From Candidatus Uhrbacteria bacterium (GTDB lineage: Bacteria > Patescibacteriota > Patescibacteriia > UBA9934 > GWF2-40-263), in contig JBAXQK010000001.1 of the NCBI GenBank assembly GCA_037131775.1, positions 76,708-140,707 on the forward strand: a stretch of DNA of 64,000 nt, in the 5' to 3' direction. Numbering within the stretch: position 1 is the stretch's first letter; the number at the start of each line of letters is the position of its first letter. A program made the position numbers and the translations under genes. Under the pieces are notes generated by a model. The model ran no database searches. It was not told the origin of the DNA and was given only the letters and a program-made list of their open reading frames with translations. Shown here piece by piece: positions 2,858 through 60,668 of the stretch.

Positions 2858-2945
2858 GGTTGATTCTCCATGGGTCGTTCAGACCCGCATTGAGTGACAC
2901 GAGCAAGGAACAGACGGATGGCGAGGATACAGGAAAAATGGCCGT

Positions 2946-2974
2946 CTGTCAAGATACGGAGGCAGTGCTATAAT
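2946..2974 (+). promoter_or_regulatory. Sigma70-like promoter (CTGTCA-17-TGcTATAAT) giving an essentially leaderless transcript for the helicase-nuclease gene
   Basis: Extended -10 TGnTATAAT at 2966-2974, only 9 nt before the ATG at 2984. A -35-like CTGTCA lies 17 nt upstream. Confidence 0.45.
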
Positions 2975-2983
2975 GCGCCCACT

Positions 2984-6276: not shown

Positions 6277-6322
6277 GTGGTTAGTGGTATACTACTCACT
6301 ACAAACCACTCACTACTCACCT
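6263..6322. repeat. GTGAGT/ACTCAC leader hairpin preceding the membrane-protein start
   Basis: GGTGAGTGGTGGGTGGTAAGTGGTTAGTGGTA / TACTACTCACTACAAACCACTCACTACTCACC inverted repeat. Ends ...CACCTGTG with GTG as the putative start. Confidence 0.6.
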
Positions 6323-20448: not shown

Positions 20449-20460
20449 GTTGTCGATCTC

Positions 20461-20502
20461 GTTCCCCCTCCTCATAGGGAGGAGGGGTCAGGGGTAGTCG
20501 TC
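20461..20502. repeat. Family-1 palindromic element copy A, intergenic (between gltX stop and peptidase start)
   Basis: GTTCCCCCTCCTCATAGGGAGGAGGGGTCAGGGGTAGTCGTC. The core CCCCTCCTC-ATAGG-GAGGAGGGG is a perfect palindrome. Confidence 0.85.
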
Positions 20503-20509
20503 GCGCTTC

Positions 20510-21973
20510 CTAGAGCAACCCAATCGCACTTGCGAGCCTGCGCATCGTCTCATCCTTGCCAAGCGCCCACGCGAGCTCGAACGGGCTCGGGGATGCGGCA
20601 CGGCCGGACAATGCCACGCGGGTCGGCCAAAGGACATTTCCATTCGACAAGCCCTTTGCCTCAATATACGCCTTTATCGACGTTTCGACCATGGAGATCT
20701 CGTTCCAGACGCTCTCGTCGGCTATCGCGAGATGGTCGCGTACGCCCGCGAGGTTCGCCTTGCTGTCCGCCGCGTCCGCCTTCTTCCAAACGAGTATCGC
20801 CGGATCGTACGCGGGGACCGAGACGTATGCGTCGACGATCTCGACGATATCCGTAAGTCGCTCCATCCGCGTCTTCTCAATTGCGCAGATCTTTTCGAGC
20901 AGCGCCGCGTCGACCGTCTTCCCGGAAGCGTCGAGAAACGGACGGACGAGTGCGACGAGCTCCGACGCCGTTTTCTTCATGATGTACTGTCCGTTCATCC
21001 AGTTGAGCTTCGCCTGGTCGAATACCGCCCCAGACTTGTTGATCTTCGCCAGGTCGAACAGCTCGATCAGCTCGTCGATCGCATAGATCTCCTGGTCCGC
21101 CTTCGGGTTGAACCCGAGCAGCGCGACGAAATTGACGAGTGCTTCCGGAAGATATCCCTTCGCGAGATAGTCCTCGACCGCGACATCTCCCTGGCGCTTC
21201 GACAGCTTCGACTTGTCCGGATTGAGGAGGAGCGGCAGGTGAGCGAACAACGGCGCGTCCCAGCCGAACAGACGGTATAGGATGACGTGCTTCGGCGTGG
21301 ACGAGATCCATTCCTCGCCGCGAATGACGTGGGTGATCTTCATCAGGTGGTCGTCGACGACGACGGCCATGTGGTACGTCGGAAACCCGTCGGACTTGAT
21401 CAGAACCTGGTCGTCGACCTCCGCGTTGTTAATCGTAATCGTTCCCCGGATCACGTCCTCGAAGGAAGTCTCTCCTTCCGGGACTCGGAGGCGGAGAACA
21501 TGCGATTCTCCGGCGCCCAAGCGTCGTAAAACTTCCTCAGATGACAAGGATGCGCAGTGGCGATCGTACTTCGTCGACAGCTTGGCAATCTCCTGCTGCT
21601 TGCGAAGACCGTCGAGCCGCTCCGACGAGCAGAAACAGACGTACGCGACACCAGCGTCGAGAAGCTGTTTCGCGTATTGCGCGTAGATCGGAAGTCGCTC
21701 CGACTGGATGTACGGCCCAACGTCGCCGGTTTGCGCGATCACTCCGTCGACGAGCTTCGGACCCTCGTCCGGCAACAGGTTCACACGCTCGAACATCCGC
21801 AGAAGCGACTCGACAGCCCCAGGAACGAACCGCTCGCGGTCCGTGTCTTCTATGCGAAGGATATACGTCCCGGTTTGCTGACGAGCAAGCAAATAGTTGT
21901 ACAGCGCCGTGCGAAGACCGCCGACATGGAGAAAGCCTGTTGGAGACGGGGCGAAGCGGGTTCGAACGGACAT
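20510..21973 (-). CDS. gltX: Glutamyl-tRNA synthetase
   Basis: MSVRTRFAPSPTGFLHVGG (HIGH region) and KLSKR (KMSKS). Start taken at the internal Met. Confidence 0.95.
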   Translation of the reverse strand: MSVRTRFAPSPTGFLHVGGLRTALYNYLLARQQTGTYILRIEDTDRERFVPGAVESLLRMFERVNLLPDEGPKLVDGVIAQTGDVGPYIQSERLPIYAQYAKQLLDAGVAYVCFCSSERLDGLRKQQEIAKLSTKYDRHCASLSSEEVLRRLGAGESHVLRLRVPEGETSFEDVIRGTITINNAEVDDQVLIKSDGFPTYHMAVVVDDHLMKITHVIRGEEWISSTPKHVILYRLFGWDAPLFAHLPLLLNPDKSKLSKRQGDVAVEDYLAKGYLPEALVNFVALLGFNPKADQEIYAIDELIELFDLAKINKSGAVFDQAKLNWMNGQYIMKKTASELVALVRPFLDASGKTVDAALLEKICAIEKTRMERLTDIVEIVDAYVSVPAYDPAILVWKKADAADSKANLAGVRDHLAIADESVWNEISMVETSIKAYIEAKGLSNGNVLWPTRVALSGRAASPSPFELAWALGKDETMRRLASAIGLL

Positions 21974-21978
21974 AATTT

Positions 21979-22821
21979 CTATTTTCCCTTGAGTTGATTG
22001 ATAATTTCCGGAACCGTCGCGCGACACGCGGCGACGAACCGATGCCGCCTCAGTGTATCCCAGACGACGACCGCTGGGAAGACGATCGCGGCGTTGAAAA
22101 TCCGCTTGAATCGGCGCGGTTCGATGACGAGTCGCCAGACCCATTCGAGCCCGACGCGACGGACGAACAAGGGCGCGCGTCGCTTCGTCCCGGCAATCAT
22201 GTCGAAGGCGCCGCCGACGCCGATGTAGATGCGGGGTTGGTTAATTGGTAAATTGGCCAAATGGTCATGTGACGAACGAAGCGCCTCGATGAAACGTTCC
22301 TGCTTGCCCATGCCAAGCGCGACGGCGACGACGTCTGCATTTTCGAAGCTGGTGAGTTTCGTGCGGTCGCACGAAAGTGACCCGGTATGAGTTTTTTCGT
22401 TCGAGACGATTCCTACGTCGACGACCGTGACGTCGAGTCCCGCGAACTGCCGGCGCATCGATTCCGCCGCTGCTTCCGCGACGCCCGGGCCGCCGCCGAC
22501 GAGGACGAGGCGCTTCCCCTGCCCCGCGCAGAGCTTTGCGAGCAGCAAGAGAGTGTCGACGCCGGTATGACGGTTCGACAAACGGTTTCCCGTCAGCGCC
22601 GGAATCGCAAATCGGAGTCCCACGCCATCGGGCAAGGACAGATCCGCGCGATTCAACAGGTCGACGAACGACGGATCGCGTCGCGCGGCGAGGACGAACT
22701 CGGGGTTCGGGGTGACGATCGTATTCGACGAATCCGACGACAGCCACCCGGACAGAAGGTCCGTCAGCTCGCCTGTGGACAAGTCGGAAATACGCACGCC
22801 GAACAGTTCAAAAACTCTCAT
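21979..22821 (-). CDS. WecB/TagA/CpsF-family glycosyltransferase (GT26)
   Basis: The pattern ...TPNPEFV...DG.GL...G(x)nLVGG... resembles UDP-ManNAc(A) transferases. Start taken at MRVFELFGVRI. Confidence 0.7.
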   Translation of the reverse strand: MRVFELFGVRISDLSTGELTDLLSGWLSSDSSNTIVTPNPEFVLAARRDPSFVDLLNRADLSLPDGVGLRFAIPALTGNRLSNRHTGVDTLLLLAKLCAGQGKRLVLVGGGPGVAEAAAESMRRQFAGLDVTVVDVGIVSNEKTHTGSLSCDRTKLTSFENADVVAVALGMGKQERFIEALRSSHDHLANLPINQPRIYIGVGGAFDMIAGTKRRAPLFVRRVGLEWVWRLVIEPRRFKRIFNAAIVFPAVVVWDTLRRHRFVAACRATVPEIINQLKGK

Positions 22822-27880: not shown

Positions 27881-29803
27881 GTGATTGCCGAAGTTTATCC
27901 AATCAAGCGGATGCCGCGCCGGTTCGACGTCTTCGACTATGAGATCCCGACCGGCATGAATCTCGCACGAGGATCCGGCGTCCGGATCCCGTTTCGGTTC
28001 GGAGAGATGCGCGGAATCGTCGCGCGAGTCACGGACGGTGCGGGACGTGGAAAGACGATCAAGCCCGTCTCGGCGATCCTGCCGGACCTTTCGATGACCG
28101 ACGACGAGCTCTCCTGCTTCGAGGACGTCGCGTTCGATACCGCGCAAAGCGTCTCGGCCGTCCTCCACGCGACGATCCCGATTCCGGGGAAACGCGACGT
28201 TTCGTCCGCCCGTCGATCCCTCAGCGTTCCCCCTCCTCATAGGGAGGAGGGGTCAGGGGTGGTCGTCTCGCCCCTCACGATCTCCGCCCGCGAGGCCCCG
28301 CAAATCTCTCAGATTGTCGCGGAACTCTCCGAGCGATCCGAGGCATTCGTCGCCATCCCCGACCTCAAGCGCGCCGCCGTCCTCATCGCGACCTACCGCC
28401 GCGACCACCCGACCGAACCCGTCCTCGTCCTCGCGCCGAACGTTCGCGATGCACGCCTCATCGCGTCCCGACTCTCTTACGTTTCCCCTCCTCATAGGGA
28501 GGAGGGGTCAGGGGTGGTCGTCGTGACCGGCGAGGAGTCTCCGGCCGAGCGTTTTCGCCGCTGGAAGCTCTGGCGCGGCCGAAGGACCGGCCTCCTCGTC
28601 GGCTCCCGCGTCGCGGCTCTCTGGACCCATCCGACGCTCGGCGCGGTATTCCTCGTACGCTCGGGACACCCCAACCATAAGCAGGACGACCGAAACCCAC
28701 GCTTCGACGCGCGATTCGTGGGACAGGTTCTCCATGGGCGACTTTCCGCCAAGCGCTTTCACCTAGACGTCATGCCAAGCACCGAGGACCTCGTTGGATT
28801 CGGCGCGGCAAATCTCCTCGGCCCGACCGCCCGTCCCGAAACGATCATCGCCGACATGACGATCGAGCGCGCCGGTTCCCCGCACCCGTGCCTCGGCAAC
28901 AGCCTTGTCATCGAGATCGCCCAGACACTCGCCGAGAACCGGCGCGTCATCTGCGCGTACAATCTCAAGGGCGTGTCGCGACGATTGCAATGCGCCGACT
29001 GCGGACACCGGTTTCCGTGCGAGAACTGCGGCGGAGTGCTCGCACCGTACGTGACGACGGTCCAATGCCACCGATGCGGTCGGACCGAGCCGCTGCCGGC
29101 CTCTTGTCCCGCATGCCATAAGAACAAGCTCACGCCGAAGGGATTTGGAAACCGCGCGGTCGCCGCGGCATTGCAGTCGGCGTTTCCCGAGGCGACCGTC
29201 GCATGCCTCGATCGCGATACGGACGTGGACGGCGCGAAGGACGCGGACATTCTCGTCGTCACGCGCCATTACGTCGAGAACGTCTTCGACCCCTTTCACC
29301 CACCGGACGTCGGTCTCGTCGCTGAGCTTGATGGGGACCGGTCCTTGTTCGAGCCGTCCTACCGTGCCCTCGAGAAATCCCTCCTTAACGCCGAGGAGTG
29401 GCGCGGAATTGCCCACGCCTGCCGCGCCAAGTTCCTCATCCAGACCGAGATGCCCGATTTGTTCCGCAACGCCCTCTCGCAGCCGGAAAAAGCCCTTCTC
29501 GACGACCTCGCCATCCGCAAGTCCTACGCCCAGCCCCCGTATGTCCGCGCCATGACCGTCGAATTCAAGCCCGACGAGCCAGGCGAACAGGCCCAAGGAA
29601 TCGCCAAGGCCATCGAAGCGATCCGCGCCGTCTCCACGTCGACCGAGATTTCGAAGCTCCCCTCTCCTTCCAAAGGAGAGGGTCAGGGTGAGGTCTACGC
29701 CCGTATCCGCCTCGCCGTCCCCCCGTCCGACGAGCTTGCCGTTCTCCAGGCCTTTTCCCCGTTCGACGACTCGTATATCATTGACACAAGGCCGTTAGAA
29801 TGA
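27881..29803 (+). CDS. priA: Primosomal protein N' (PriA)-like, with Cys4 zinc-binding domain but no recognisable Walker A/B motifs (GTG start)
   Basis: N-terminal 3'-DNA-binding-like domain. PriA-like blocks (VLVLAPNV..., RRWKLWRGRRTGLLVGSRVAAL) and CADCGH...CENCGG...CHRCG...CPAC. The positions where GxGKT and DEEH are expected read IPDLKRAA and RSGH. Confidence 0.65.
   Translation: MIAEVYPIKRMPRRFDVFDYEIPTGMNLARGSGVRIPFRFGEMRGIVARVTDGAGRGKTIKPVSAILPDLSMTDDELSCFEDVAFDTAQSVSAVLHATIPIPGKRDVSSARRSLSVPPPHREEGSGVVVSPLTISAREAPQISQIVAELSERSEAFVAIPDLKRAAVLIATYRRDHPTEPVLVLAPNVRDARLIASRLSYVSPPHREEGSGVVVVTGEESPAERFRRWKLWRGRRTGLLVGSRVAALWTHPTLGAVFLVRSGHPNHKQDDRNPRFDARFVGQVLHGRLSAKRFHLDVMPSTEDLVGFGAANLLGPTARPETIIADMTIERAGSPHPCLGNSLVIEIAQTLAENRRVICAYNLKGVSRRLQCADCGHRFPCENCGGVLAPYVTTVQCHRCGRTEPLPASCPACHKNKLTPKGFGNRAVAAALQSAFPEATVACLDRDTDVDGAKDADILVVTRHYVENVFDPFHPPDVGLVAELDGDRSLFEPSYRALEKSLLNAEEWRGIAHACRAKFLIQTEMPDLFRNALSQPEKALLDDLAIRKSYAQPPYVRAMTVEFKPDEPGEQAQGIAKAIEAIRAVSTSTEISKLPSPSKGEGQGEVYARIRLAVPPSDELAVLQAFSPFDDSYIIDTRPLE
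28226..28267. repeat. Family-1 palindromic element copy B, in-frame in priA-like gene
   Basis: GTTCCCCCTCCTCATAGGGAGGAGGGGTCAGGGGTGGTCGTC encodes VPPPHREEGSGVVV. Confidence 0.9.
28481..28522. repeat. Family-1 palindromic element copy C, in-frame in priA-like gene
   Basis: GTTTCCCCTCCTCATAGGGAGGAGGGGTCAGGGGTGGTCGTC encodes VSPPHREEGSGVVV. Confidence 0.9.
29659..29695. repeat. Diverged family-1-like palindromic element (variant 3) in-frame near priA C-terminus
   Basis: CCCCTCTCCTT-CCA-AAGGAGAGGG-TCAGGGTGAGGTC: same architecture (palindrome plus TCAGGG(G)TG(R)GGTC tail) and same frame, encoding PSPSKGEGQGEV. Confidence 0.6.
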
Positions 29804-33603: not shown

Positions 33604-34301
33604 AGGCGGTGCTTCGTCGCGATAATCGTTCTGGCCTCGTCGTAGCGTCGAACCGAAGACGGCCTCCAGCCAAGCCGGTGCCATGGAATCCGATAGATGA
33701 ACGACGGGCGCCACTGGGAGATGCCCGGGCGGTCGGAGCGGTCGATGACCTGGAAGAGCTCTCGATCGACGAACGTGCCGACATGGCCCTGTTCGAGCAT
33801 CGTGAGCCAGACATCCCAATCCTGGAAACGCCTGATCGACGGGTCGAACCCGGGGAAATGCTCGCGGCGGACGAGCGACGTCGTGTGGACGAAGTTCATG
33901 CGGCGGAGTCGGTTCGCGTCGAACGAAAAGGACGAAAATGACTTCCAACCGAATCGAAACCCGCTGTACGCGTAGCTTGCCTCCGGATGGTCGACAAGCG
34001 CCCGTTCCATCGTCGCGAGCATGTCTGGCGCCATGACCACGTCCGCGTCGCAGAAGATCACGAGGTCGCCGGTCGCCCGCGCGAACCCATTGTTCCGCGC
34101 GACGTTCCCGCCCTGGTTCGACTGCGTCACGATCGTGATGCGATCGGCAAACGCGGCAAGGACGCGTCCGGTCTCGTCCGTGCTGCCGTCGTTCACGACG
34201 ATGATCTCGTCGGGCTTCCGCGTCTGAACGAAAAGAGAGTTCAGACACTCCGAGAGCGTCTTCGCGTGCTGGTAGGACGGGATGATGACGGAGATCGTCA
34301 C
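33600..34301 (-). CDS. Family 2 glycosyltransferase
   Basis: MTISVIIPSYQHAKTL...VNDGSTDET...DADV... GT-A fold. Confidence 0.75.
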   Translation of the reverse strand: MTISVIIPSYQHAKTLSECLNSLFVQTRKPDEIIVVNDGSTDETGRVLAAFADRITIVTQSNQGGNVARNNGFARATGDLVIFCDADVVMAPDMLATMERALVDHPEASYAYSGFRFGWKSFSSFSFDANRLRRMNFVHTTSLVRREHFPGFDPSIRRFQDWDVWLTMLEQGHVGTFVDRELFQVIDRSDRPGISQWRPSFIYRIPWHRLGWRPSSVRRYDEARTIIATKHRL

Positions 34302-35347
34302 AGATATTCCTTCAATTTCTCAAGCTGTACTTCGTTCGTAAACTCGTCGGCAGCCCGCCGATAGGCCGCTTCGCCCAGCCGCCGCCGTTCCTCGTCGCTC
34401 ATGGCCAAACGATACACCGCGTCCGCGAGCGCCGCAATGTCCCCGTCCTTGACGAGAAGGCCTGTCATTCCGTTGAGAACAGCCTCGTCGACGCCCCGCA
34501 TGTCCGTCGCAACCGACGGGACGCCATGCAGCGCGGCCTCGAGATACACCATGCCGAATCCTTCGCGGTCGACGGAATCCGCCACGACCGGCTCGACGAA
34601 TATGTCGGCGGCGGCGTAATGGTCGGAGAGCTGATCGTCGGCCACGTCGCGAGCGATCGTCACTCGGTCGTCGAGACCAAGCTCGGCGATGCGTCGCGCG
34701 ATCGTCTCGAGACAAGGGCCGTCGCCGACGATGTCGTATTGAACGGATAGGTCGGGATGGTCGCGCCGAAGCAGCGACATCGCGTCGAGAACGCGAAGGT
34801 GGCCTTTGCGAGGGACGAGCCGAGCAACGGTAAGCAAACGAAAGACGTGCGCGACGACCACCCCTGACCCCTCCTCCCTATGAGGAGGGGGAACATGTTT
34901 GGATATCGTCGGGTATACGACGACCGTCCTCTCAACCCCAAACTCATTCTTCACTTCCCTCTCCAACGCCTTCGAGTTCGCCACGACCACCTCCGCACCG
35001 CGCAGGACCATCCCAGCGACGATTCGCTTTGCCCAGCGCGTCTTAGCGAGCCCAATGTCCATCCCGTGAACGATCACGACGTACGACGTTCCCGTCATCC
35101 ACTTGAACGCAAGCGCCGCCGTCCCGATCGGCAAGACGTGGCTGACGACAATCGTCGTGTCAACACCGAGTGTCGACGCTTGGCGATCGTGAAAGAATTG
35201 TCGAAGCGCCTGCCACCACCGCGTCGACGGATCCAAGACGGCCACTTCCATCGAATCTGAAAAGTACGCCGCGAGATTCCCGAGGTATCTGGCCACTCCG
35301 CCCCGCGACGGCGCGTAATCAGTCGTGTATAGCCGTGTCTTCGGCAT
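34298..35347 (-). CDS. Family 4 (GT-B) glycosyltransferase carrying an in-frame family-1 element
   Basis: N-terminal ...YAPSRGGVARYL... and C-terminal EGFGMVYLEAALHGVPSVATD (E-x7-E-like). Start at MPKTRLYT. Confidence 0.75.
   Translation of the reverse strand: MPKTRLYTTDYAPSRGGVARYLGNLAAYFSDSMEVAVLDPSTRWWQALRQFFHDRQASTLGVDTTIVVSHVLPIGTAALAFKWMTGTSYVVIVHGMDIGLAKTRWAKRIVAGMVLRGAEVVVANSKALEREVKNEFGVERTVVVYPTISKHVPPPHREEGSGVVVAHVFRLLTVARLVPRKGHLRVLDAMSLLRRDHPDLSVQYDIVGDGPCLETIARRIAELGLDDRVTIARDVADDQLSDHYAAADIFVEPVVADSVDREGFGMVYLEAALHGVPSVATDMRGVDEAVLNGMTGLLVKDGDIAALADAVYRLAMSDEERRRLGEAAYRRAADEFTNEVQLEKLKEYL
34853..34894. repeat. Family-1 palindromic element copy D (reverse orientation on + strand, same orientation relative to host gene), in-frame in GT4 gene
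   Basis: Reverse complement equals copy B exactly. Encodes VPPPHREEGSGVVV between the two Rossmann-like halves. Confidence 0.9.
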
Positions 35348-36791
35348 AGGCGGTCTTTCGACGGATAAGCTGGATGATTCCAGTGAGATGATGCTTTTGG
35401 ACCGATCGGGACAACACGAGCATGACGGCATAGACGAACGCGGCAAACGGAAGGGCGAGGTAGAATCCGGTCTCGGGACGAACGAGGCGCGTAGCGAACC
35501 CCATCACGGCGGCGGAACAGATGATCGGGACGATCGTTTTCAGCAGACGCGCGAACCCGTATTCCGGGATCACCTGCGGGACAAACCAGAAGCCGGAGAC
35601 GAACAGGAACGTGAAGCTGATCACGCCGGAATAGGCCGCTCCGAGGATGCCGAACGTCGGAATCAGGAACAGGTTGCTTATCACGTTGATGACCATCGTA
35701 ACGCCCATCACCGCGGTCTTCGTTGCCTGCCGATTCGCGGCATTAAGGAGCGAGCCGACGGGAAAGTCGAGGAAGATGGGAATGAGGACGAAGATGAGGA
35801 CCGCGAGTACCGGCGCGGCGTTCGCATATCCGTCCCCGGCGAGAGCAATCGCGTCCCCGGCAACGGCCCAGAGACCGAACGCGATCGGGGCCGCGAGAAT
35901 CGTCACGTACCAAACAGCCTCGTCGAACAGTCTCGTCAGGGCGTCCGAGTCCTTCTTCCCCACCATCGCGCTCATTCCCGGATACAGCGCGGCGACGAAC
36001 GCCATCGGGAGGAACTGAAACGCGTACGTGAACTTATAGGCCACGGCATAGACGCCGACCGCGGCGGTTCCGACGACCTTGGAGATGATGAGCGAATCGA
36101 CGTACGAGTAAACCTTCACGAACATCCCGGCGAGCGCGAACGGAAGGGCGGCGGCGAGCAACGCCTTGATAGCCTGTTTGTCGAAGTGAGGCCGCAGAAC
36201 CGACCAGCCGTAGATCGAAACGACGTGGCGCGCGGAATAGATCGCGTTGAAGGTCGAACCGACGAGAAGCGCAAGAACGAGAAGGTGAAGCGACGGGTGC
36301 GTCAAAAGGACGATTCCGCCGAACAGGAGCGTGCACGTCTGTCCCACGAAGATCCCGAGCGACTCGAACCGCAGCGTGTGGTGTCCGCGGAGGACGCCGT
36401 AAAACAACAGGCTCATCGCGTCCGCCAGCATCACGAGGGACGCCACGAGGACGAGCTCGCGGACGGTCGCATCGTATCCCAGCGCCCATGACATCGCCAC
36501 CGCGCCGACCGTCGCCAGCGCCATGAACGGAATCTTGAGCCAGACGGCGCGTCGGATCAGGTCCGCGGCGCGCTCCGGAACCTTCGCGACGTCGCGGATC
36601 ACCACCGGCGTCACGCCAAGGTCCGTGATCGTCGAAAAGATCGTCGTAATCGACAGCGCGAGGAAATAATCCCCCGTCGCCTCGGGCCGCATGACGCGCG
36701 CGAGCAACAAGAAATAGAAGAACGCGAGGATCTTCTGCGCGATGGACGCGGCGGTGAGATAGAGGGTATTTTTTGCCACGGGAGAGGACAT
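35319..36791 (-). CDS. Polysaccharide/oligosaccharide flippase (MOP superfamily, Wzx-like)
   Basis: Polytopic, 12-14 TM segments. N-terminal MSSPVAKNTLYLTAASIAQKILAFFYFLLLAR typical of Wzx/PST. Confidence 0.65.
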   Translation of the reverse strand: MSSPVAKNTLYLTAASIAQKILAFFYFLLLARVMRPEATGDYFLALSITTIFSTITDLGVTPVVIRDVAKVPERAADLIRRAVWLKIPFMALATVGAVAMSWALGYDATVRELVLVASLVMLADAMSLLFYGVLRGHHTLRFESLGIFVGQTCTLLFGGIVLLTHPSLHLLVLALLVGSTFNAIYSARHVVSIYGWSVLRPHFDKQAIKALLAAALPFALAGMFVKVYSYVDSLIISKVVGTAAVGVYAVAYKFTYAFQFLPMAFVAALYPGMSAMVGKKDSDALTRLFDEAVWYVTILAAPIAFGLWAVAGDAIALAGDGYANAAPVLAVLIFVLIPIFLDFPVGSLLNAANRQATKTAVMGVTMVINVISNLFLIPTFGILGAAYSGVISFTFLFVSGFWFVPQVIPEYGFARLLKTIVPIICSAAVMGFATRLVRPETGFYLALPFAAFVYAVMLVLSRSVQKHHLTGIIQLIRRKTAYAEDTAIHD

Positions 36792-49000: not shown

Positions 49001-50392
49001 ATGAAGCTTCTCCAGCCCATCTCAGGCACCGTCGACCGGCTTGCGCCGGACGGCAGCGGCGTGATCAATCGTCCCGAGGGCAAACCTTTTTTGATTTATA
49101 ACGTGATTCCGGGCGAGGAGGTGACCGCGACGGTCGTGAAGCGCGGGCCGGACGGCGTACGGGCGAAGCTCGACTCGATCGTCGTCGCGTCGCCGGACCG
49201 CGTCGCGCCGCGCTGCCCGTACGCCGGAACGTGCGGGGGGTGCAAGTGGCAACACATGGATTATACACGACAGCGGCAGGAGAAGCTCAATCGGCTGCGG
49301 TCGACCTTCGCGGAGGCGGCGACTGAGTGTCCCGTCGAGTCCGTCGTCGCAAGCCCCGACCAGTTCTACTATCGCAACCGCATGGATTTCACCTTCGGGC
49401 GCGACGGCGAACTTGGCTTGAAGATGCCGGACAAATGGTGGGCCGCGCTCAACCTGGAGACATGCTACCTGCTCTCCCCCGAATCCGTAGAAATCGTCAA
49501 CGCCGTCCGCGAGTGGGCACGATCGACGGGATTGCCCTTCTGGGACGGAAAGACGCACGCGGGATTCTTTCGGTATCTCGTGATCCGCGAAGGAAAGTTT
49601 ACGGGCGAGCGCATGGTCACGCTCGTGACGACCGACCCAACGGGACTAAAGTCCCTGGGAATCGATGGAATTCCCAGGGACTTTAGTCCCGCGGGTTTCG
49701 TCGCCGCGATCGGCGACCGCGCGACCTCGATCATCCACGGCATCAACGACGGAATCACCGACCTCTCGATCTCCGACGTTCTCGTCCCGCTCAAAGGCGA
49801 CCCGTTCATTCACGAGGAGATCAACGGCGTCCGGTTCAAGATCACGCCGAACGCATTCTTCCAGACCAACTCTGCCATGGCCGCGAAACTCCAGGACGAG
49901 GTCGTCCGTCACTGCGAGGCTGCCGTCACGGGCAAGACGAACGCGACCGTCCTCGACCTTTACTGCGGATCCGGATTCTTCTCCCTCGCCCTCGCAAAAC
50001 GGTCGCCAACGATGAACGTCGTTGGAATCGAGGAAAACGCCGAGGCGATCGCCTGCGCCAAAGAGAACGTCGCGACGAACGGCGTCTCGGCCGAATACTT
50101 CGTCTCCAAGGCCGAGGAGTTCGACTGGAAGAGCTACGCCCCCGACGTCGTCATCGTCGACCCGCCGCGCGCCGGAATGCACCCGAAGGTCATCGAGACC
50201 CTTCTTGAGGCCGCGCCCCCGACGATTATCTATATCTCCTGTAAATACGAGCGTTTCCTCATGGAATGGAACGGAACCGCCAACAGCGCCCCGGCGCTTT
50301 CGACCAAATACCGCCTCGCCGACGCGGCCGCCCTCGACCTCTTCCCGCACACCCCGCACATCGAGTTCGTCGCGCGGCTCGAGCTACGTTAG
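49001..50392 (+). CDS. rlmD: 23S rRNA (uracil-5-)-methyltransferase RlmD/RumA-type (TRAM domain + 4Fe-4S + SAM MTase) carrying an in-frame family-2 palindrome
   Basis: TRAM N-domain. Cysteine cluster CPYAGTCGGCKWQ. SAM-binding VLDLYCGSGFFS. Catalytic region ...DPPRAG.... Confidence 0.8.
   Translation: MKLLQPISGTVDRLAPDGSGVINRPEGKPFLIYNVIPGEEVTATVVKRGPDGVRAKLDSIVVASPDRVAPRCPYAGTCGGCKWQHMDYTRQRQEKLNRLRSTFAEAATECPVESVVASPDQFYYRNRMDFTFGRDGELGLKMPDKWWAALNLETCYLLSPESVEIVNAVREWARSTGLPFWDGKTHAGFFRYLVIREGKFTGERMVTLVTTDPTGLKSLGIDGIPRDFSPAGFVAAIGDRATSIIHGINDGITDLSISDVLVPLKGDPFIHEEINGVRFKITPNAFFQTNSAMAAKLQDEVVRHCEAAVTGKTNATVLDLYCGSGFFSLALAKRSPTMNVVGIEENAEAIACAKENVATNGVSAEYFVSKAEEFDWKSYAPDVVIVDPPRAGMHPKVIETLLEAAPPTIIYISCKYERFLMEWNGTANSAPALSTKYRLADAAALDLFPHTPHIEFVARLELR
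49642..49690. repeat. Family-2 palindromic element, full copy (GGGACTAAAGTCCCTGGGAAT-cgatgg-AATTCCCAGGGACTTTAGTCCC), in-frame in rlmD
   Basis: Perfect 21/22-nt inverted repeat with a 6-nt loop. Encodes TGLKSLGIDGIPRDFSPAG in the host frame. Confidence 0.85.
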
Positions 50393-52360: not shown

Positions 52361-52413
52361 AGGATAGTGAGTAGTGAGTGGTGAGTAGTTTGTGGTTAGT
52401 ATATAGTATTCCC
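52361..52413. repeat. GTGAGTAGT-repeat leader element immediately upstream of the thioredoxin-like gene (minus strand)
   Basis: Minus strand reads ...CACAAACTACTCACCACTCACTACTCACTATCCTATG(gca). Same ACTCAC motif and CCTATG start context as the atp hairpins. Confidence 0.55.
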
Positions 52414-53064
52414 ATGAAAACGTCCCATCGGGCAACCATCGTCCTGTTCGTCCTCATGGTCACGACGCTGCTCGTCGGCCAGCGCTTTGGATTCGCTTGG
52501 GCCGGGGGATCAGGATACGTCCCTTCGCAACTCGCTGGAATCGTCGCGATGGTTGGGACGCCTACCGTCGATCATGCCGGGACCATTCGGGATGCCGTTC
52601 TATGGAAATCCGTCGCACGCGGGGAAACCGTCCGAACCATCGCCGGACAGCGCGTCAAGCTTCAAATCGCCCTTGGGCATTCCGTCTCGCTCGATGAGAA
52701 CACGGACGTGACCGTCGAGGAAAACGACGCGGACGGAATCCGGCTCAAGCTCCTTCGCGGCCGCGTCTACGCCGACGCGACGCCAATCGACGGACTCGCC
52801 AAGACGCTGTCCATCGACACGCTCGCTTCGCGGTCGACGATTACGACCGGCGCGATCACGGTCGTCAATTACGATTTCCTCTGGAAGGTTTCCATCGCGC
52901 CCATCGACACGGAGGCGGACGTGGTGGTCGGCGGCGACATGGATTTTCCGACGCGTTCCCCTATGAACGTAAACGACGCGACGGCCAACGTGATTGGCGG
53001 CGCCGCGTCGTTCAACATGTCTGCGCCGGACGTGGCGGACTTTTACGCGTGGGTCAAACGATAA
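52414..53064 (+). CDS. Secreted hypothetical protein, possibly FecR-like beta-sandwich
   Basis: Signal/TM start MKTSHRATIVLFVLMV. The pattern GETVRTIAGQRVKLQIALGHSVSL...TDVTV...GRVY... resembles FecR-domain proteins. Weak. Confidence 0.35.
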   Translation: MKTSHRATIVLFVLMVTTLLVGQRFGFAWAGGSGYVPSQLAGIVAMVGTPTVDHAGTIRDAVLWKSVARGETVRTIAGQRVKLQIALGHSVSLDENTDVTVEENDADGIRLKLLRGRVYADATPIDGLAKTLSIDTLASRSTITTGAITVVNYDFLWKVSIAPIDTEADVVVGGDMDFPTRSPMNVNDATANVIGGAASFNMSAPDVADFYAWVKR

Positions 53065-54169
53065 TCCCGCCGCCGATCATCTCCTCGCCGTCGTAGATCA
53101 CGATCGACTGTCCGGACGTGACGGCGCGGACAGGGTCGTCGAACTCGACGGTGATCTGCTCCGTGTCGACCACCCCTGACCCCTCCTGCCTATCAGGAGG
53201 GGAAACTTGGGTGGGGGGGACTTGGGTGATGGAGACGATCGTGCACGCTTGCAGCGGTTGGCGATAGCGGACGCGGGCGGAGAGCTTTTCTCCGACGACG
53301 GGGCGACGGAACCAGTTCGTAGACGTCGCGACGAGTTTCTTTTCAAACAACGCCGGATGAAAATTGCTCGAGACGATGAGCTGCTTCGTCTCGGGTTTTT
53401 TGTCGACCACGTAATACGGCGTTCCTCCCCCGACGTTCAGGCCGTGGCGCTGACCGATCGTATAGAACGCGACCCCCTCGTGCGTACCCACCACTTCCCC
53501 GCCCGTCGTGACGATCTCGCCCGGATCCTCCGGAATCCGTTCCTTCAAGAACTCACGGATGTCGACTTCCCCAACGAAACAAATCCCCGTCGAATCCTTC
53601 TTCTCCGCCGTCGACAACCCAAGCTCGCGCGCCTTCTCGCGAACCTCAGGCTTCGTCATCGCGCCGACCGGAAACAACAAGCGCGGCAGCACGGCCTTTG
53701 GGATCGCCCAGAGAAAGTACGTCTGGTCCTTGTTATCGTCGGAACCGGCGAGGATCCGGCCGTCGACGATCCGCGCATAATGCCCAGTCGCGACGAACGC
53801 GCAGCCGAGACGGTCCGCCTCTTTGACGAACAGGTCGAACTTTACGTACTTATTGCACAGCACGTCGGGATTCGGCGTCCGTCCCGCCGCGTACTCCTGA
53901 TACAGATTCTCGACGACGAGGTCGCGATACTGCTTCTCGAAGTCGAACGTGACGAACGGAATCCCAAGCTTCGCCGCCACCCGCATCGCGTCACGCCGCT
54001 CGGTGCGCCAGCCGCACTCCTTCGTCTCTCCATCGCACTTGATCTCCGTCCAGTTCTTCATGAACGCCCCGATCACCTCGTACCCCTGCTCCAACAGCAA
54101 CGCCGCGGCCACGGACGAATCCACGCCGCCGGACATGCCGAGAAGAACTTTCTTGGGAGCTTCTTCCAT
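53054..54169 (-). CDS. mnmA: tRNA-specific 2-thiouridylase MnmA, with an in-frame family-1 element near the C-terminus
   Basis: PP-loop VLLGMSGGVDSSVAA. Catalytic cysteines. Start taken at MEEAPKKVLLG. Confidence 0.9.
   Translation of the reverse strand: MEEAPKKVLLGMSGGVDSSVAAALLLEQGYEVIGAFMKNWTEIKCDGETKECGWRTERRDAMRVAAKLGIPFVTFDFEKQYRDLVVENLYQEYAAGRTPNPDVLCNKYVKFDLFVKEADRLGCAFVATGHYARIVDGRILAGSDDNKDQTYFLWAIPKAVLPRLLFPVGAMTKPEVREKARELGLSTAEKKDSTGICFVGEVDIREFLKERIPEDPGEIVTTGGEVVGTHEGVAFYTIGQRHGLNVGGGTPYYVVDKKPETKQLIVSSNFHPALFEKKLVATSTNWFRRPVVGEKLSARVRYRQPLQACTIVSITQVPPTQVSPPDRQEGSGVVDTEQITVEFDDPVRAVTSGQSIVIYDGEEMIGGGIIV
53168..53206. repeat. Family-1 palindromic element copy E (variant 2: CCCCTCCTG-CCTAT-CAGGAGGGG), in-frame in mnmA
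   Basis: GACCACCCCTGACCCCTCCTGCCTATCAGGAGGGGAAAC encodes (minus strand) VSPPDRQEGSGVV. Confidence 0.9.
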
Positions 54170-56778: not shown

Positions 56779-59013
56779 CTAGTCGAACTTGATCGTCTGG
56801 CCCGAGTAGACCGTACCGGTCTTCAGCGGAACCCAGCCGTCGTTGTCGTCGGATGGCGACGGGGCGATCGGCGCGGGTGGTTTCGGGGTTGGGGCGGGCG
56901 TCGTGACGGGAGTCGGAACCGGAGCCGGATTACTACCAACGCTCGGTGTTGGCAGTTGCGGTTTGGGAGCGACGGGTTGTTGTAGGTGTGGGTTTGAGTT
57001 GTTTGTAGTTTGTGGCGCTACGGGCGGCCGAGGCTTCGGATTCTGCAGGAACGCCTGTGGGGAATTCGGGCCGCCGGTGCCCTTGTTAGGGCGCTTGCGT
57101 CGCGTGTCCTTGCCTGGGACGAAGGGGCGCGGTCCTGTCGCGGCCGGGGTTGGCTGCGGTTGTCGCGGAGTCGACGGAGAGCCGTGCGTCGCGGCAACCG
57201 CGATCGGCGCGGCTGACGTGACCGTCGGGGGGCTGTTCAGCGGGGATGAGAGCATTTGGGACATGAAGTCGGTCGCGGGCGCTGGCGTCGAGACGACGGG
57301 CTTCGGCGCGACGACCACCCCTGACCCCTCCTGCCTATCAGGAGGGGAAACGTGCTTGATGACCGGGGCTGCCGGGGGCCTGGCGACTGGGGCCAATGCG
57401 GTGAGCGATACGGACGACACGGGACGGGCCGCCGCGACGGGCGGACGATCGACGGGCGCGCTGTCCAACGAGCGCAATGGCGGCGGAGGCGGGGACGGCG
57501 GGCGCCTCGTGTCCTTGCGATCCTTCCCTTTCGCGCGTTCCTCCTTCACAATCTCGATGCACTCCTCGCAATAGATCGGACGGCTCGTGTCGAGCTGCAC
57601 CGCGAGCGCGATATCCTTGTTGCAGCGCGAACACTTATAGTCGAACCTTGGCTTCTTCGATCCTTTCGCATCTTTCTTCTTTGCTTCCATCTCCGCGACC
57701 ATCTTCCCGATGGACTCGTCGTCGCCCATCCCGGTCCACTTCATGATCTTGTCGGCGATCTCCTCGCGCGGCGTCGTGTACCGCTCGCGGCTCACCTTGA
57801 TCACCTTTTCCTCCGACCCGGTGCGCTTGGCAATCGGCGGAAGCGTCATTGCGGAGAACGGCTGGCTCGTGACGCCGTCGATGAGCAGCTTGAGATAAAT
57901 GTTGTACTTCGGCAGGTTGATAATGTCCTCCGGCAAAAAGCGCGGGGCAAACTCCGTTTCCATGTACGCGGCGTCCGGCGAACCGACGCGGAAGGTGACG
58001 ATCGTTCCGACGTTTCCAAACACCGCCTCGCGTACCTCGTCGGAGAGCTGGGCGATGTACTGGTGGGCCATCGTCAGGCAGAGGCGGTACTTGCGCGCCT
58101 CGGACAGGATGCCGGCGAACGATTCCGTCGCGAAGTTCTGGAACTCGTCCACGTACATGTAAAAGTCCTTGCGCTCGTGCTCCGGCTGGTCCACGCGTTC
58201 CATGGCCGACAGCTGCAGCTTCGTGATCAGAAGCCCTCCGAGAAGGCGCATGTTGTCCTCGCCGATGCGGCCCTTCGACAGGTTGATGATCAGGATCTTC
58301 TGCTCGTCCATCAGCTGGCGGATGTTGATGGTCGACTTTACCTGGGCGACGATGTTGCGAATGACCGAGGCGGACAAAAACTGACCGATCTTGTTCTGGA
58401 TCGGGGCCACGGCCTCCTGCGCGTACTTCTCCTGGTAGCTGGCGAATTCCACCAGCCAGAACTGCTTCACCACCGGATCCTGCACGTTCGCGACGATCTT
58501 GCGTCGGAAGTCCGCGTCGGACAGCATGCGATTGATCCCAAGCAGCGTCGACCCCGGGTTGTCGAGCAGCGCGAGGATCGCGTTGTTCAAAATGTACTCC
58601 ATGCGCGCGCTCCAGAGGTTCTCCCAGAGCTTCTTGAACACGCCCATCATTCCGGACGCGACCAGGTGCTTCGTCTTCTCGCTGACCGTCTCCAAGATGT
58701 TGAATCCGATCGGAAAATCAAGGTCGGCCGGATTGAAGTAGATGACGTCGTTTATGCGCCAGCTCGGGATATAGTCGATAAGCCGCTCGGCCGTGTCGCC
58801 GTGCGGGTCGATGTACGCGCATCCGTGACCGGCATAGATGTCGGTAAGGATGAGATTTTCGAGCAGAACCGTCTTGCCCATGCCCGTCTTTCCGATCACG
58901 TACACGTGGCGGCGGCGGTCATCGGTCTTAACGCCAAATTTCCGCATCTGATTGCGGAAATTGGTGCGCGCGAAATAGTTTACCTCGTTCTCGTGATCGT
59001 GGGCGTAGCTCAT
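56779..59013 (-). CDS. Type IV secretion coupling-protein-like P-loop ATPase (TraD/TraG/VirD4 family), soluble, with C-terminal zinc ribbon and Pro-rich tail
   Basis: Walker A GKTGMGKT; DPHGD; Walker B YVDEFQNF; ...ARKYRLCLTMAHQYIAQL... like the T4CP C-terminal motif; CSRCN...CEEC ribbon. The tail contains family-1 copy F. Confidence 0.5.
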   Translation of the reverse strand: MSYAHDHENEVNYFARTNFRNQMRKFGVKTDDRRRHVYVIGKTGMGKTVLLENLILTDIYAGHGCAYIDPHGDTAERLIDYIPSWRINDVIYFNPADLDFPIGFNILETVSEKTKHLVASGMMGVFKKLWENLWSARMEYILNNAILALLDNPGSTLLGINRMLSDADFRRKIVANVQDPVVKQFWLVEFASYQEKYAQEAVAPIQNKIGQFLSASVIRNIVAQVKSTINIRQLMDEQKILIINLSKGRIGEDNMRLLGGLLITKLQLSAMERVDQPEHERKDFYMYVDEFQNFATESFAGILSEARKYRLCLTMAHQYIAQLSDEVREAVFGNVGTIVTFRVGSPDAAYMETEFAPRFLPEDIINLPKYNIYLKLLIDGVTSQPFSAMTLPPIAKRTGSEEKVIKVSRERYTTPREEIADKIMKWTGMGDDESIGKMVAEMEAKKKDAKGSKKPRFDYKCSRCNKDIALAVQLDTSRPIYCEECIEIVKEERAKGKDRKDTRRPPSPPPPPLRSLDSAPVDRPPVAAARPVSSVSLTALAPVARPPAAPVIKHVSPPDRQEGSGVVVAPKPVVSTPAPATDFMSQMLSSPLNSPPTVTSAAPIAVAATHGSPSTPRQPQPTPAATGPRPFVPGKDTRRKRPNKGTGGPNSPQAFLQNPKPRPPVAPQTTNNSNPHLQQPVAPKPQLPTPSVGSNPAPVPTPVTTPAPTPKPPAPIAPSPSDDNDGWVPLKTGTVYSGQTIKFD
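57313..57351. repeat. Family-1 palindromic element copy F (variant 2), in-frame in the T4CP-like gene tail
   Basis: GACCACCCCTGACCCCTCCTGCCTATCAGGAGGGGAAAC encodes (minus strand) VSPPDRQEGSGVVV. Confidence 0.9.
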
Positions 59014-60668
59014 ACGGGAAGGTTCGGGGGAATACCGTCGTCGACCCATCCTGGCGGCGGTCCGGGGAGCTCAACGTCGGCGGGAGGACCCATGTCAACC
59101 GCGTCGAGCCCGTCCTCGCCTTCCTCGTCAGGAGTAAACTGATGCGCGGATGCGGGAGCCTCGGACGGTTCCATTCCAGGCAGCCGGATTTCCGGCTCCT
59201 GCGCCGTTTCATGCGATTGAACGTGCGAACCATGGTCCTCATGCGCACCGCCCCCATGCGACTCCGCCACTCCACCCTGGTGCGCGGACAAAACCGGGGC
59301 ATGCGCGGAAACCGGCATGCGGGTCGGCATCGAGTGATGGTCGACGTCGTCGGATCCAATCGGCAGGCCAACCGGCGGCTCGGCGCGCTTGGCGTCGGCC
59401 TTCTTCACGAGCGGCGCCTTCACCGTGATCGACGGGAAATGCCACAGCGTGGCAAGCTCCTCGATGTTGAGCGTCCATGCTTCCGCGCCAATTCCCCATG
59501 ATCGGTTGCGGAACGCGCGAACGAGTCTCCCTTGCCTGGTGGCATACGTCCATGCCTGCCAGAAATAGTCGTCCTTCGGCGTTGCATCGCCGTGCAATCC
59601 GAGCGAGTTCATGTTCAGGTGCGCGAACTGGTTGAACATCCCCTTTACGAACGCGGTGCGGGCCTGCTTGTCGTACACGCCCTTCTTTCCAATGTACACC
59701 AGTCGCATCTTGGTCTTGAATCCCACCTTGCCGATCTTCTTGAGAACGCCCTCAACCTGCTCTTTCTCGGCCATGGTAATCTTGAACGCCTTCCACATGT
59801 CTGGATCCTGCGCCGGCTTCGCATGTGGGTCCGCCGCCGTGGAAAACCCAAACGCTTCCATCGCGATGTCCGCCGGAATCGAGAGCGTGTTGCTGATCAA
59901 GTTTTCAAACATCCCCGGCTTGTGCTTTGCCTCGTTGCCGAACACTTTGTTGATAAAGTCCTCGCCCGCCTTCTTCCAGTCGTTCCCGTTCGGCTTGATA
60001 ATGATTTGAATCCAAAAGTGCTCGCCGACCTTCATTTTTGCCAATTGTTCCAAAATCGGTCCGAGCGGATCCTTCAGCTCGCCGGAAATCTTGTCCTCGA
60101 AGTCGGTATACGTGCGCAACGGAAAAATTTCCGGTTTCTTCAGGATAAGCTCGCTTCCCCACGTATCCCAGGTATCGTTCGGATATTCTCCCGGAGCCCA
60201 GGATGCATAGTCCTCGACTTCGGTTATTTCCGCTTCCGGATATGCCGCGTAGATGCCCGCCTCAACGACGTCGCGATACCGGGTTTGCACTCGCACGTAA
60301 TACTGGACATAGCCCTCGGTCGACACGATCTCGAACGAGAACGGAGACTGAAACTTTCCAATGATCCACTTTTCCTTCCAGGTCAGGTTCGAATACGATC
60401 CCCAAAGCGAGGAGAACATGTTCTCGAGCGCCTTCGGGGTCTGCTCCGTCATGGGAGGAACGTCGATCGCCAGCAGAGCGAATTTGAGCGAGGCCGCGTA
60501 CTTTTCCTGACGGGTGACCTCCCAAACTTTAGTGATTCCCCACAATATCGTAATAACGATTGGGACCCATCCAAACCAAACGAGTATATCGTAGAGAACC
60601 ACGTCGATGGGTTGGTTCCAGAACAGCGGCGACGAAAGGGACGCAATGATGGATGCGGCGAAGAACAT
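59010..60668 (-). CDS. Hypothetical membrane protein (N-terminal TM helices, large extracytoplasmic domain, His-rich acidic C-terminal tail), translationally coupled to the T4CP-like gene
   Basis: Start at MFFAASIIASLSS... The only strong AAAGGAGGT seen in the window lies upstream. ATGA overlap with the downstream gene. C-terminus HGGGAHEDHGSHVQSHE. Confidence 0.4.
   Translation of the reverse strand: MFFAASIIASLSSPLFWNQPIDVVLYDILVWFGWVPIVITILWGITKVWEVTRQEKYAASLKFALLAIDVPPMTEQTPKALENMFSSLWGSYSNLTWKEKWIIGKFQSPFSFEIVSTEGYVQYYVRVQTRYRDVVEAGIYAAYPEAEITEVEDYASWAPGEYPNDTWDTWGSELILKKPEIFPLRTYTDFEDKISGELKDPLGPILEQLAKMKVGEHFWIQIIIKPNGNDWKKAGEDFINKVFGNEAKHKPGMFENLISNTLSIPADIAMEAFGFSTAADPHAKPAQDPDMWKAFKITMAEKEQVEGVLKKIGKVGFKTKMRLVYIGKKGVYDKQARTAFVKGMFNQFAHLNMNSLGLHGDATPKDDYFWQAWTYATRQGRLVRAFRNRSWGIGAEAWTLNIEELATLWHFPSITVKAPLVKKADAKRAEPPVGLPIGSDDVDHHSMPTRMPVSAHAPVLSAHQGGVAESHGGGAHEDHGSHVQSHETAQEPEIRLPGMEPSEAPASAHQFTPDEEGEDGLDAVDMGPPADVELPGPPPGWVDDGIPPNLPV

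Follow-up and report, generated by a model that had tools for sequence, protein, structure and literature searches.

What is being maintained when a short palindrome recurs, nearly letter for letter, in frame within unrelated housekeeping genes of a bacterium with a reduced genome: a peptide, an RNA hairpin, or a structure formed by the DNA itself? The question is posed by a stretch of 64,000 nt of contig JBAXQK010000001.1 (assembly GCA_037131775.1) from Candidatus Uhrbacteria, a member of the Patescibacteria. This stretch is here called the window, and all positions refer to it unless another locus is named. It carries six copies of an element termed family-1, one of them within mnmA, and a seventh copy of a sister type. 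A sequence-only reading of the mnmA copy had proposed that a hairpin is under selection. Our analysis suggests, with a probability that we put at roughly 60%, that the element belongs to the G/C-rich intrastrand-triplex repeats of the BoxC/PIT/TMECO kind, with a length of 46–48 bp, and that the hairpin would be only one part of its structure.

The palindrome and its two variants

The perfect 9-5-9 palindrome CCCCTCCTS-N5-SAGGAGGGG recognised in the sequence-only reading is exact at 20465, 28230, 28485, 34868, 53180 and 57325. These are six occurrences against 0.01 expected from shuffles, in a window with 60.8% G+C. Brought into a common orientation, the six copies read (c)gcgacgaccACCCCTGA-CCCCTCCT[C/G]-CCTAT-[G/C]AGGAGGGG-RAAC. 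The interval 53168-53206 originally picked out in mnmA spans exactly the flank GACCACCCC, TGA, the hairpin and AAAC. The variants differ solely at the ninth, loop-closing pair, which is G:C at 53180 and 57325 and C:G in the other four copies, as had been noted. A change in the loop had also been described and is mistaken: once all six copies are read the same way round, each has the loop CCTAT (reverse complement ATAGG). The apparent change arose because the variant copies had been read on the plus strand and the other copies on the gene-sense strand. Two features had been overlooked, namely the related copy at 29660-29695 and the mirror symmetry between flank and stem.

A three-segment, triplex-type architecture

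The hairpin accounts for only two thirds of the element. Its G-rich strand reads CCCCTCCTC-ATAGG-GAGGAGGGG-TCA-GGGGTGGTC (as a single strand, 5'-CCCCTCCTCATAGGGAGGAGGGGTCAGGGGTGGTC-3'), so that a pyrimidine arm and then a purine arm are followed by a third segment of G and T. The flank GACCACCCC mirrors the 5' arm, and the third segment GGGGTGGTC correspondingly mirrors the purine arm after a 3-nt linker. A listing of all perfect C-rich hairpins in the collected sequences showed that the flank, read away from the linker, tends to follow the 5' arm with A in place of T. This is seen in the arm and flank pairs CCCCTCCTC with CCCCACCAG, CCCCTCCCC with CCCCACCCC, CCCCTCCTTT with CCCCACCAAA, CCCCTCCCTT with CCCCACCCAA, CCCTCCCT with CCCACCCA and CCCTCTCCCC with CCCACTCCCC, and a further example is CCCTCTCC.. 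with CCCACTCC... On the G-rich strand the mirror relation places G opposite G and T opposite A. As judged from the order of its segments, the layout is that of a textbook intramolecular purine-motif triplex of the class II intrastrand type.

An ITxF-like scan with the criteria of PMC4666352 (stem of at least 8, at most one bad triad, loops of 3–6 and 1–6, with G.G:C, A.A:T and T.A:T accepted as class II triads) returned six class II motifs in the window, at element copies, and none in 20 shuffles. Triads 1–8 of family-1 are canonical and position 9 is non-canonical in both variants. As the sole stem position outside the canonical triads, the ninth pair answers to Watson-Crick pairing alone, which allows the flip from C:G to G:C and explains why this pair varies and does so in a compensated way. 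The predicted energy of the Watson-Crick hairpin as DNA is −10.6 to −10.8 kcal/mol (ViennaRNA, which models the hairpin only). In the mechanism that we propose, the G-rich strand would become single-stranded during replication or repair or in a transcription bubble, whereupon its arms would pair into a Watson-Crick hairpin of 9 bp and the third segment would then fold back into the major groove to give G.G:C and T.A:T triads at positions 1–8. Position 9 would be free to change as long as its Watson-Crick pair is kept, yielding the observed flip.

Class II intrastrand triplex motifs were described by Holder et al. 2015, and their frequent G/C-rich example is TMECO, formerly named BoxC and PIT (Hoyne et al. 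2000; Holder et al. 2015; PMC4666352). TMECO follows the pattern CCCTCNCCC-N3-6-GGGNGAGGG-N3-GGGNGAGGG, occurs 3610 times in 262 proteobacterial genomes and forms its triplex in vitro, as established by circular dichroism and nuclear magnetic resonance. It is always intergenic in E. coli MG1655, sometimes forms inverted pairs and marks variable loci (PMC4666352). The present element shares with these repeats a G-rich strand on which two 9-nt stems, the first C-rich and the next G-rich, are separated by a loop of 3–6 nt, and a 3-nt loop then leads to a further G-rich segment, together with the triads G.G:C, T.A:T and A.A:T. It also shares the high similarity of copies within a genome, some inverted pairs, the lack of a transposase link and a presence that differs sharply between close relatives at unstable loci, seen here as empty and filled sites and nested insertions.

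The copy at 29660, the sole addition made by a covariance-model search of the window, reads CCCTCTCCTT-CCA-AAGGAGAGGG-TCA-GGGTGAGGTC and is nearly an E. coli TMECO sequence. It agrees with the literal TMECO pattern at 8 of 9 positions per segment, and the three departures fall in one triad. Compared with E. coli TMECO (BoxC) no. 2, CCCTCTCCC-TTGA-GGGAGAGGG-TTA-GGGTGAGGG (PMC4666352), one triad is altered on all three strands, from C:G.G to T:A.T. The same BoxC-type variant is present in another locus of the wider set (L142). Family-1 itself does not follow the literal TMECO pattern, reading CCCCTCCTC...GAGGAGGGG...GGGGTGGTC with the stem CCCCTCCTC in place of CCCTCNCCC. The setting also differs, as TMECO was reported from Proteobacteria and is intergenic in E. 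coli MG1655, whereas here, in the Patescibacteria, six of the seven copies are translated in frame in housekeeping genes.

Purine-motif triplexes do not form in RNA according to work cited in PMC4666352, which makes single-stranded DNA a likelier folded species than mRNA. Of the two forms first suggested for the hairpin, a DNA cruciform or an RNA stem-loop, it is therefore the DNA structure that is favoured and the RNA stem-loop that is disfavoured. The linker between hairpin and flank is YRA (TGA, TAA, CGA or CAA) in 211 of 243 oriented copies of an alphaproteobacterial version of the element. The possibility that the linker is selected as a stop codon was considered and rejected, as YRA includes CGA and CAA across all copies. 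In the alphaproteobacterial version the G-rich strand reads GGGGGAGGGGTCAGGGGTGGGGG and also fits the canonical four-tract motif of a G-quadruplex.

Covariation and conservation

A wider set of copies came from two scans, of species-representative genomes and of metagenome contigs, and from an nhmmer search of the loci that they yielded (numbered with the prefix L). In Uhrbacteria-like contigs it comprises some 45 copies of this family. One search pattern fixed the outer seven stem pairs and the first five flank bases, and the set is partly pattern-selected. When 35 distinct cores were anchored on the 5' flank only, 97% of cells were paired, with pair 8 being CG, UA or UG and pair 9 being CG, GC or UA. 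The stem positions covary as had been anticipated, with a score above all 500 shuffles and all slid controls. The outer seven pairs are invariant, in part owing to the pattern that fixed them. Thirteen single mismatches, among them three T.G and five C.A, gave no strand signal that would separate RNA from DNA.

The sequence-only reading held that frequent unpaired stem changes, together with an origin of the variants in a single duplication, would speak against selection on structure. Only three or four of the approximately 45 copies carry an unpaired stem substitution, and the G:C variant occurs at no fewer than seven loci in at least five contigs or genomes, so the claim of structural selection stands unrefuted. 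Paired changes alone are nevertheless no proof of selection, as hairpin-templated mutation also restores palindromes. The claim that a structure is selected, and not only a peptide, holds in that pairing is kept by double changes, but the object under selection exceeds the simple hairpin then envisaged.

The covariation extends to the third strand. Across 23 stem classes, interruptions of the C-run coincide between flank and arm in 42 of 62 cases, compared with 20.3 on average and never more than 34 when the flanks were permuted among the classes 20,000 times, and an A in the flank stands opposite a T in the 5' arm in 29 of 46 cases. The flank is also conserved to the same degree as the stem: among 39 copies, 2.6% of flank sites vary, compared with 2.0% and 2.9% in the two arms, 6.2% in the loop and 11–25% in the outer flanks.

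Copies that occupy a shared site are conserved far above synonymous sites, and this makes a better argument for selection than the paired changes. At the ValRS–ArgRS spacer, loci L120 and L029 differ at 2 of 47 element sites but at 17 of 50 neighbouring third codon positions (P ~1e-6). Between the MnmA copies of the window and of L173, 1 of 39 sites differs, compared with 25.6% of third positions (P ~1e-4). In both pairs it is the rarer G:C variant that is retained, a point against their having been homogenised by the more common C:G copies. These comparisons support selection on a DNA structure that would comprise more than a hairpin.

Part of this pattern could in principle arise by mutation with no structural selection, if template switching, quasipalindrome correction or gene conversion kept the palindromes perfect and near-identity reflected recent spread. 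The copies are nearly identical overall, and no single-mismatch intermediate at pair 9 was found. Removal of that pair costs only ~2.5 kcal/mol as DNA, for which weak selection would be expected, and indels and nested insertions gather at copies, as expected of slippage-prone hairpins. We nevertheless regard this explanation as improbable. Template switching gives inverted rather than mirror repeats and leaves the covariation of flank and stem unexplained, and conservation of the unpaired flank, like that of the arms and above that of synonymous sites, requires more than hairpin correction. Homogenisation is also at odds with same-locus copies that keep their own G:C variant in both genomes.

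Copies in the window

The copies in the window are all singlets and mostly intragenic (Table 1). Six of the seven lie in frame within genes, and the host genes are backed by Pfam or PDB matches.

Table 1. Copies of the element in the window, with host and neighbouring genes
Feature	Position	Strand	Remarks
M23 peptidase gene	19192-20448	-	neighbour of spacer copy
C:G copy in gltX–M23 peptidase spacer	20460-20506	-	fills spacer; same orientation as both genes; one flank substitution (GACTACCCC)
gltX	20510-22144	-	neighbour of spacer copy
PriA gene	27881-29803	+	hosts the copies at 28225, 28480 and 29660
C:G copy in PriA	28225-28271	-	in frame, after 3'BD domain
palindrome	28230-28252
TCA	28253-28255
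third-strand segment GGGGTGGTC	28256-28264	+	sequence as read on + strand
Second C:G copy in PriA	28480-28526	-	in frame, after 3'BD domain
palindrome	28485-28507
third-strand segment	28511-28519
Sister copy of BoxC type in PriA	29660-29695	+	in frame (PSPSKGEGQGEVYA), C-terminal part
GT4 glycosyltransferase open reading frame	34298-35503	-	copy in linker between its two domains
C:G copy in GT4 glycosyltransferase	34849-34897	+	in frame as VPPPHREEGSGVVVA
palindrome	34868-34890
mnmA	53054-54169	-	hosts the copy at 53162
G:C copy in mnmA	53162-53209	+	in frame
flank GACCACCCC	53168-53176
TGA	53177-53179
5' arm	53180-53188
loop CCTAT	53189-53193
3' arm	53194-53202
AAAC	53203-53206
T4CP-like ATPase gene	56779-59049	-	hosts the copy at 57306
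G:C copy in T4CP-like ATPase	57306-57354	+	C-terminal tail; in frame as VSPPDRQEGSGVVVA
palindrome	57325-57347

In the C-terminal barrel of MnmA, the copy inserts 20 residues that E. coli MnmA (2DER) does not have. The AlphaFold model shows the insert as a low-confidence loop between two beta strands, with a pLDDT below 50 at residues 320–334 of the protein. In the GT4 enzyme the insert falls at residues ~204–218, between Glyco_transf_4 (117–200) and Glycos_transf_1 (223–383). The two family-1 copies in PriA are spaced by 255 nt (85 codons). Copy orientation follows the strand of the host gene. A replication-strand cause for the pattern along the window (three minus, then three plus) was rejected, as there is no GC-skew switch. 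Next to the mnmA copy, at 53204-53232, lies a 15-nt tandem duplication (gene-sense ACCCAAGTCCCCCCC / ACCCAAGTTTCCCCT; TQVPP-TQVSPP) that is missing from the same-site copy in L173. The intragenic habit probably reflects the coding density of the source genome, which is ~95%. We propose that copies would survive mainly where they are harmless, in surface loops and linkers or as the whole spacer between two genes, and that within genes they would be read in the one hydrophilic stop-free frame.

The five in-gene family-1 copies share the frame V-S/P-P-P-H/D-R-E/Q-E-G-S-G-V-V-V, and the peptides PPHREEGSG and SPPDRQEGSG given in the sequence-only reading are true in-frame translations in PriA, the GT4 enzyme, MnmA and the T4CP-like gene. 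Selection of this peptide, as a functional linker or motif, would account for one hydrophilic frame being used in all five and in most copies elsewhere, and for its preservation by compensating indels in the MnmA variants of L174 and L175. The same frame bias is accounted for by tolerance: one orientation of the element has two stop-free frames and the hydrophilic one alone is used, because the alternative, FPLLIGRRGQGWSS, is hydrophobic. The host proteins are unrelated, with inserts in loops or linkers that are modelled as disordered. The variants differ non-synonymously, and other copies lie in spacers or, in the GT4 gene of L161, in another frame (RRPPLTPPPYEEGKR). With spacer copies, both orientations and two or more frames in use, the peptide is not the selected unit, and an explanation built on it is barely credible.

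Far from probable too is a role as an RNA module for translation. In the C-rich orientation, the element offers a TGA stop, a hairpin that would sequester the Shine-Dalgarno sequence GGAGG, AAAC and often GTG or ATG, and so could serve as a portable junction of stop, ribosome-binding site and start that couples the translation of neighbouring genes. Copies between same-strand genes do fill the spacer, with a start codon within 4–16 nt, the hairpin is stable as RNA (−18 to −19 kcal/mol) and a three-codon mini-ORF (open reading frame) overlaps the ArgRS start at the ValRS–ArgRS junction of L120 and L029. Against this, the C-rich strand is antisense to the host gene in five of the six family-1 copies of the window and in most other classified copies, and spacer copies occur in both orientations. 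Upstream genes use their own stop codons, with the element TGA not always in their frame, the YRA linker is not specifically a stop, and the mirror flank is left unexplained.

Insertion polymorphism in relatives

Relatives carry in-frame copies in ValRS, a class II aminoacyl-tRNA synthetase, KsgA, a FemAB protein and GT4 enzymes. One GT4 gene (L161) has two copies that both lie in the opposite orientation to the usual one, read as RRPPLTPPPYEEGKR, and other copies occupy entire spacers between same-strand genes. Overall, both orientations and two or more reading frames are represented, and some copies lie in non-coding spacers. The mini-ORF of the ValRS–ArgRS spacer, ATG-AGA/AAC-ATA-TGA, stands between element and ArgRS at L120:7016-7035 and on the reverse strand of L029 at 2253-2272, and in both its stop overlaps the ArgRS ATG.

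The MnmA of the window is 75–91% identical to Candidatus Uhrbacteria proteins. Most close homologues, including P0003 (91% identical) and that of L168, are without the insert. L173 holds the same G:C copy at the same site, L169 an inverted doublet of a TT:AA variant, and L174 and L175 the TT:AA variant with a 3-nt loop. A 30-nt in-frame insertion in L173 (AYAKASVDKS; L173:10990-11019) splits the copy between the purine arm and the third-strand segment, and would disrupt the proposed triplex while leaving the hairpin intact. The T4CP copy is missing from the orthologous genes in L173, L168 and L169, and at the ValRS site L029 holds the element where L120 holds a different palindromic element. 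The element is thus dispersed and polymorphic among close relatives, with nested insertions and duplications at the MnmA, T4CP and ValRS loci alongside empty and filled sites. No target-site duplication was established at the filled and empty pairs of these three loci, where the junctions are too diverged or hold other insertions. Short lineage-specific inserts such as RFERKDRFDRSE, RTFEPSNLRPCEP and PSTGSGQA, at columns 50–75 and 160–185 of an alignment of MnmA homologues, resemble further mini-palindromes read in different frames, and T4CP relatives carry repeated IPQNRPE inserts.

The core ACCCCTGA-CCCCTCC...GGAGGGG was found by the genome scan in many Alphaproteobacteria, where ~74% of classifiable copies (68 of 92; L001–L119) are intergenic. 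It was also found in contigs labelled Prevotella, Chloroflexota and Propionispora, as well as in a Patescibacteria contig of 32% GC, which means that base composition is no explanation. The inner stem and loop vary between the lineages that bear the core. When plasmids were searched with the alphaproteobacterial version, a single match of uninformative annotation was returned. Rfam at gathering scores had no match at the elements in the window or in 14 loci, and a concatenated 54-residue query of element peptides had no protein match at E <= 10. Literature searches with element sequence strings returned chance matches only, and found no link between Uhrbacteria and palindromic repeats.

The patchy filled and empty sites across relatives, with no target-site duplication seen, fit peel-and-paste transposition and bring in a further explanation, in which a RAYT-like Y1 (HUH) transposase would mobilise a hairpin-only element of the REP/REPIN kind. 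This transposase would recognise a single-stranded DNA hairpin with a conserved 5' flank, so that only copies with an intact hairpin propagate and compensated variants result. The mirror relation of the flank would then be incidental, or would serve recognition by a protein or guide. Related Uhrbacteria do contain RAYT-like Y1_Tnp genes (PF01797), as single genes among housekeeping genes. These are palindrome-flanked as RAYTs are (PMC5581495), their sole NCBIfam match is REP_Tyr_transpos, and for one of them the surrounding locus shares synteny with the end of the window. Inverted doublets of the element are found in MnmA of L169 and in the alphaproteobacterial loci L040, L046 and L069.

The NCBIfam match, at 26–42 bits, is far under the 80-bit cut-off, and the palindromes around the Y1 genes of L170 and L171 belong to other sequence families. 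No Y1 gene lies in the window or in any element-bearing locus: tblastn with ten Y1 transposases against the window and all loci matched only the loci from which these came. Holder et al. report no transposase association for TMECO (PMC4666352). A RAYT-like enzyme also leaves the mirror covariation of flank and stem unexplained. REPs share with the element short GC-rich palindromes, a conserved asymmetric flank, many dispersed copies, occasional inverted doublets and RAYT-like genes in genomes related to the source (PMC5581495), but are extragenic and flank their own RAYT gene, whereas the element copies are mostly intragenic and the related Y1 genes are flanked by other palindromes. This explanation is compatible with the triplex reading, and in its hairpin-only form we judge it unlikely, though less so than a purely mutational origin.

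Other repeats in and near the window

The Y1_Tnp gene in the region syntenic with window 53–64 kb (L169:1-430 and L170:1178-1870) encodes 230 residues, adjoins DUF1294-SecD just past the window end and is bounded by a 26-nt inverted repeat, ACCAAGCTACGTCGCTAAGTGGCGTA. On the minus strand at 2484-2522 the window holds a hairpin, GATCCCCGTCACTAAGTGGCGGGGAT followed by CGTCAATGTTTATT, whose 3' tail CGTCAATGTTTACAG also stands behind the palindromes that flank a RAYT-like gene in L171 and L172; this family may be the REP family of the RAYT-like enzyme itself. A second palindromic family, (A)CGGGACTAAAGTCCCTGGGAAT, is present at 49620-49712 as an inverted doublet in frame (DPTGLKSLGIDGIPRDFSPAG) in a tRNA U5-methyltransferase-like gene (49001-50392), and at 3495-3526 as a single copy (EASGTKVPGNL) in a UvrD/PD-(D/E)XK helicase-nuclease gene (2894-5896). 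It also fills the ValRS linker site in L120. Intergenic inverted repeats of GTAGTGAGTAGT-like words at gene ends (525-596, 1988-2053, 6277-6321 and 52367-52396) may be terminator-like hairpins of another repeat family.

Discussion

Our results point to a known kind of motif, the BoxC/PIT/TMECO repeat, in a new phylum, the Patescibacteria, and in a setting unusual for such repeats, that of translation in frame within housekeeping genes. Triplex formation, and any bearing it may have on spread or retention, is what we infer from the pattern of bases. The candidate means of spread are an HUH/Y1 (RAYT-like) transposase and polymerase template switching at the structure.

Several observations weigh against the triplex reading. 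The triad at position 9 is imperfect throughout, and in the copy at 20465 the flank substitution adds a third-strand mismatch through which this copy fails the triplex-motif scan. The mirrored G-runs would also be compatible with a G-quadruplex in the alphaproteobacterial version. In E. coli, an in vivo dimethyl sulfate footprint showed no protection (PMC4666352). Within the pattern-collected set, flank positions 6–10 and stem positions 8–9 alone are free of bias, and the 23 stem classes may represent fewer independent evolutionary events. The conservation at shared sites could partly come from repeated insertion into one permissive site rather than orthology, and the MnmA site is occupied by different variants in different lineages. 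Lastly, no transposase linked to the element was found in the window or in the element loci.

In its behaviour the element resembles the Rickettsia palindromic elements (Ogata et al. 2000; reviewed in PMC10969869), which are likewise short palindromic repeats in frame in unrelated housekeeping genes of a small genome, occur in non-coding DNA too and insert a peptide where the fold and function of the protein can accommodate it. They differ in being long hairpins of ~100–150 bp, with no mirror flank, from Rickettsia, compared with 46–48 bp (15–16 codons) and a triplex-type design here. There is no sequence relation, so that the likeness is one of behaviour only and membership is excluded by sequence, size and taxon. 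Mycobacterial interspersed repetitive units (MIRU) are reportedly tandem units of 40–100 bp that are not palindromic, and their intergenic copies are said to span the whole operon spacer in one orientation with stop and start signals that join the genes. The spacer copies of the element, which also occupy the whole spacer with stop and start signals, might be compared with them by analogy.

A wider proposal can be made more tentatively. These repeats may form one superfamily of structure-defined mobile DNA with the core ACCCCYRA-CCCCTCC...GGAGGGG, spanning at least Pseudomonadota and Patescibacteria, the core being found also in contigs labelled Bacteroidota, Chloroflexota and Bacillota. Its three strands would co-evolve, and together with other mini-palindromes it would be a main source of peptide insertions in housekeeping proteins of the Candidate Phyla Radiation, possibly moved by RAYT-like Y1 enzymes. 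We consider this proposal possible rather than probable. BoxC/TMECO repeats have been known for some 30 years; to our knowledge, no function or means of spread has been assigned to them and the evidence for their triplex in cells is thin. If the proposal holds, the concerted change of flank, purine arm and pyrimidine arm across lineages would be the first comparative evidence of an intrastrand DNA triplex under selection in vivo. Evidence of this type is routine for RNA helices, and we know of no such report for a DNA triplex. The conservation of shared-site copies far above synonymous sites also sets the element apart from decaying junk.

For the Patescibacteria, the finding places in-frame repeats in the tRNA-modification, replication-restart and cell-envelope genes of a reduced genome, and in aminoacyl-tRNA synthetase genes of its relatives. 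This habit parallels that of the Rickettsia palindromic elements, long regarded as a peculiarity of their genus. If it proves general, it would give some of the hitherto unexplained insertions in proteins of the Candidate Phyla Radiation a simple origin, and such genomes would supply many natural filled and empty sites at which the movement of these elements could be studied.

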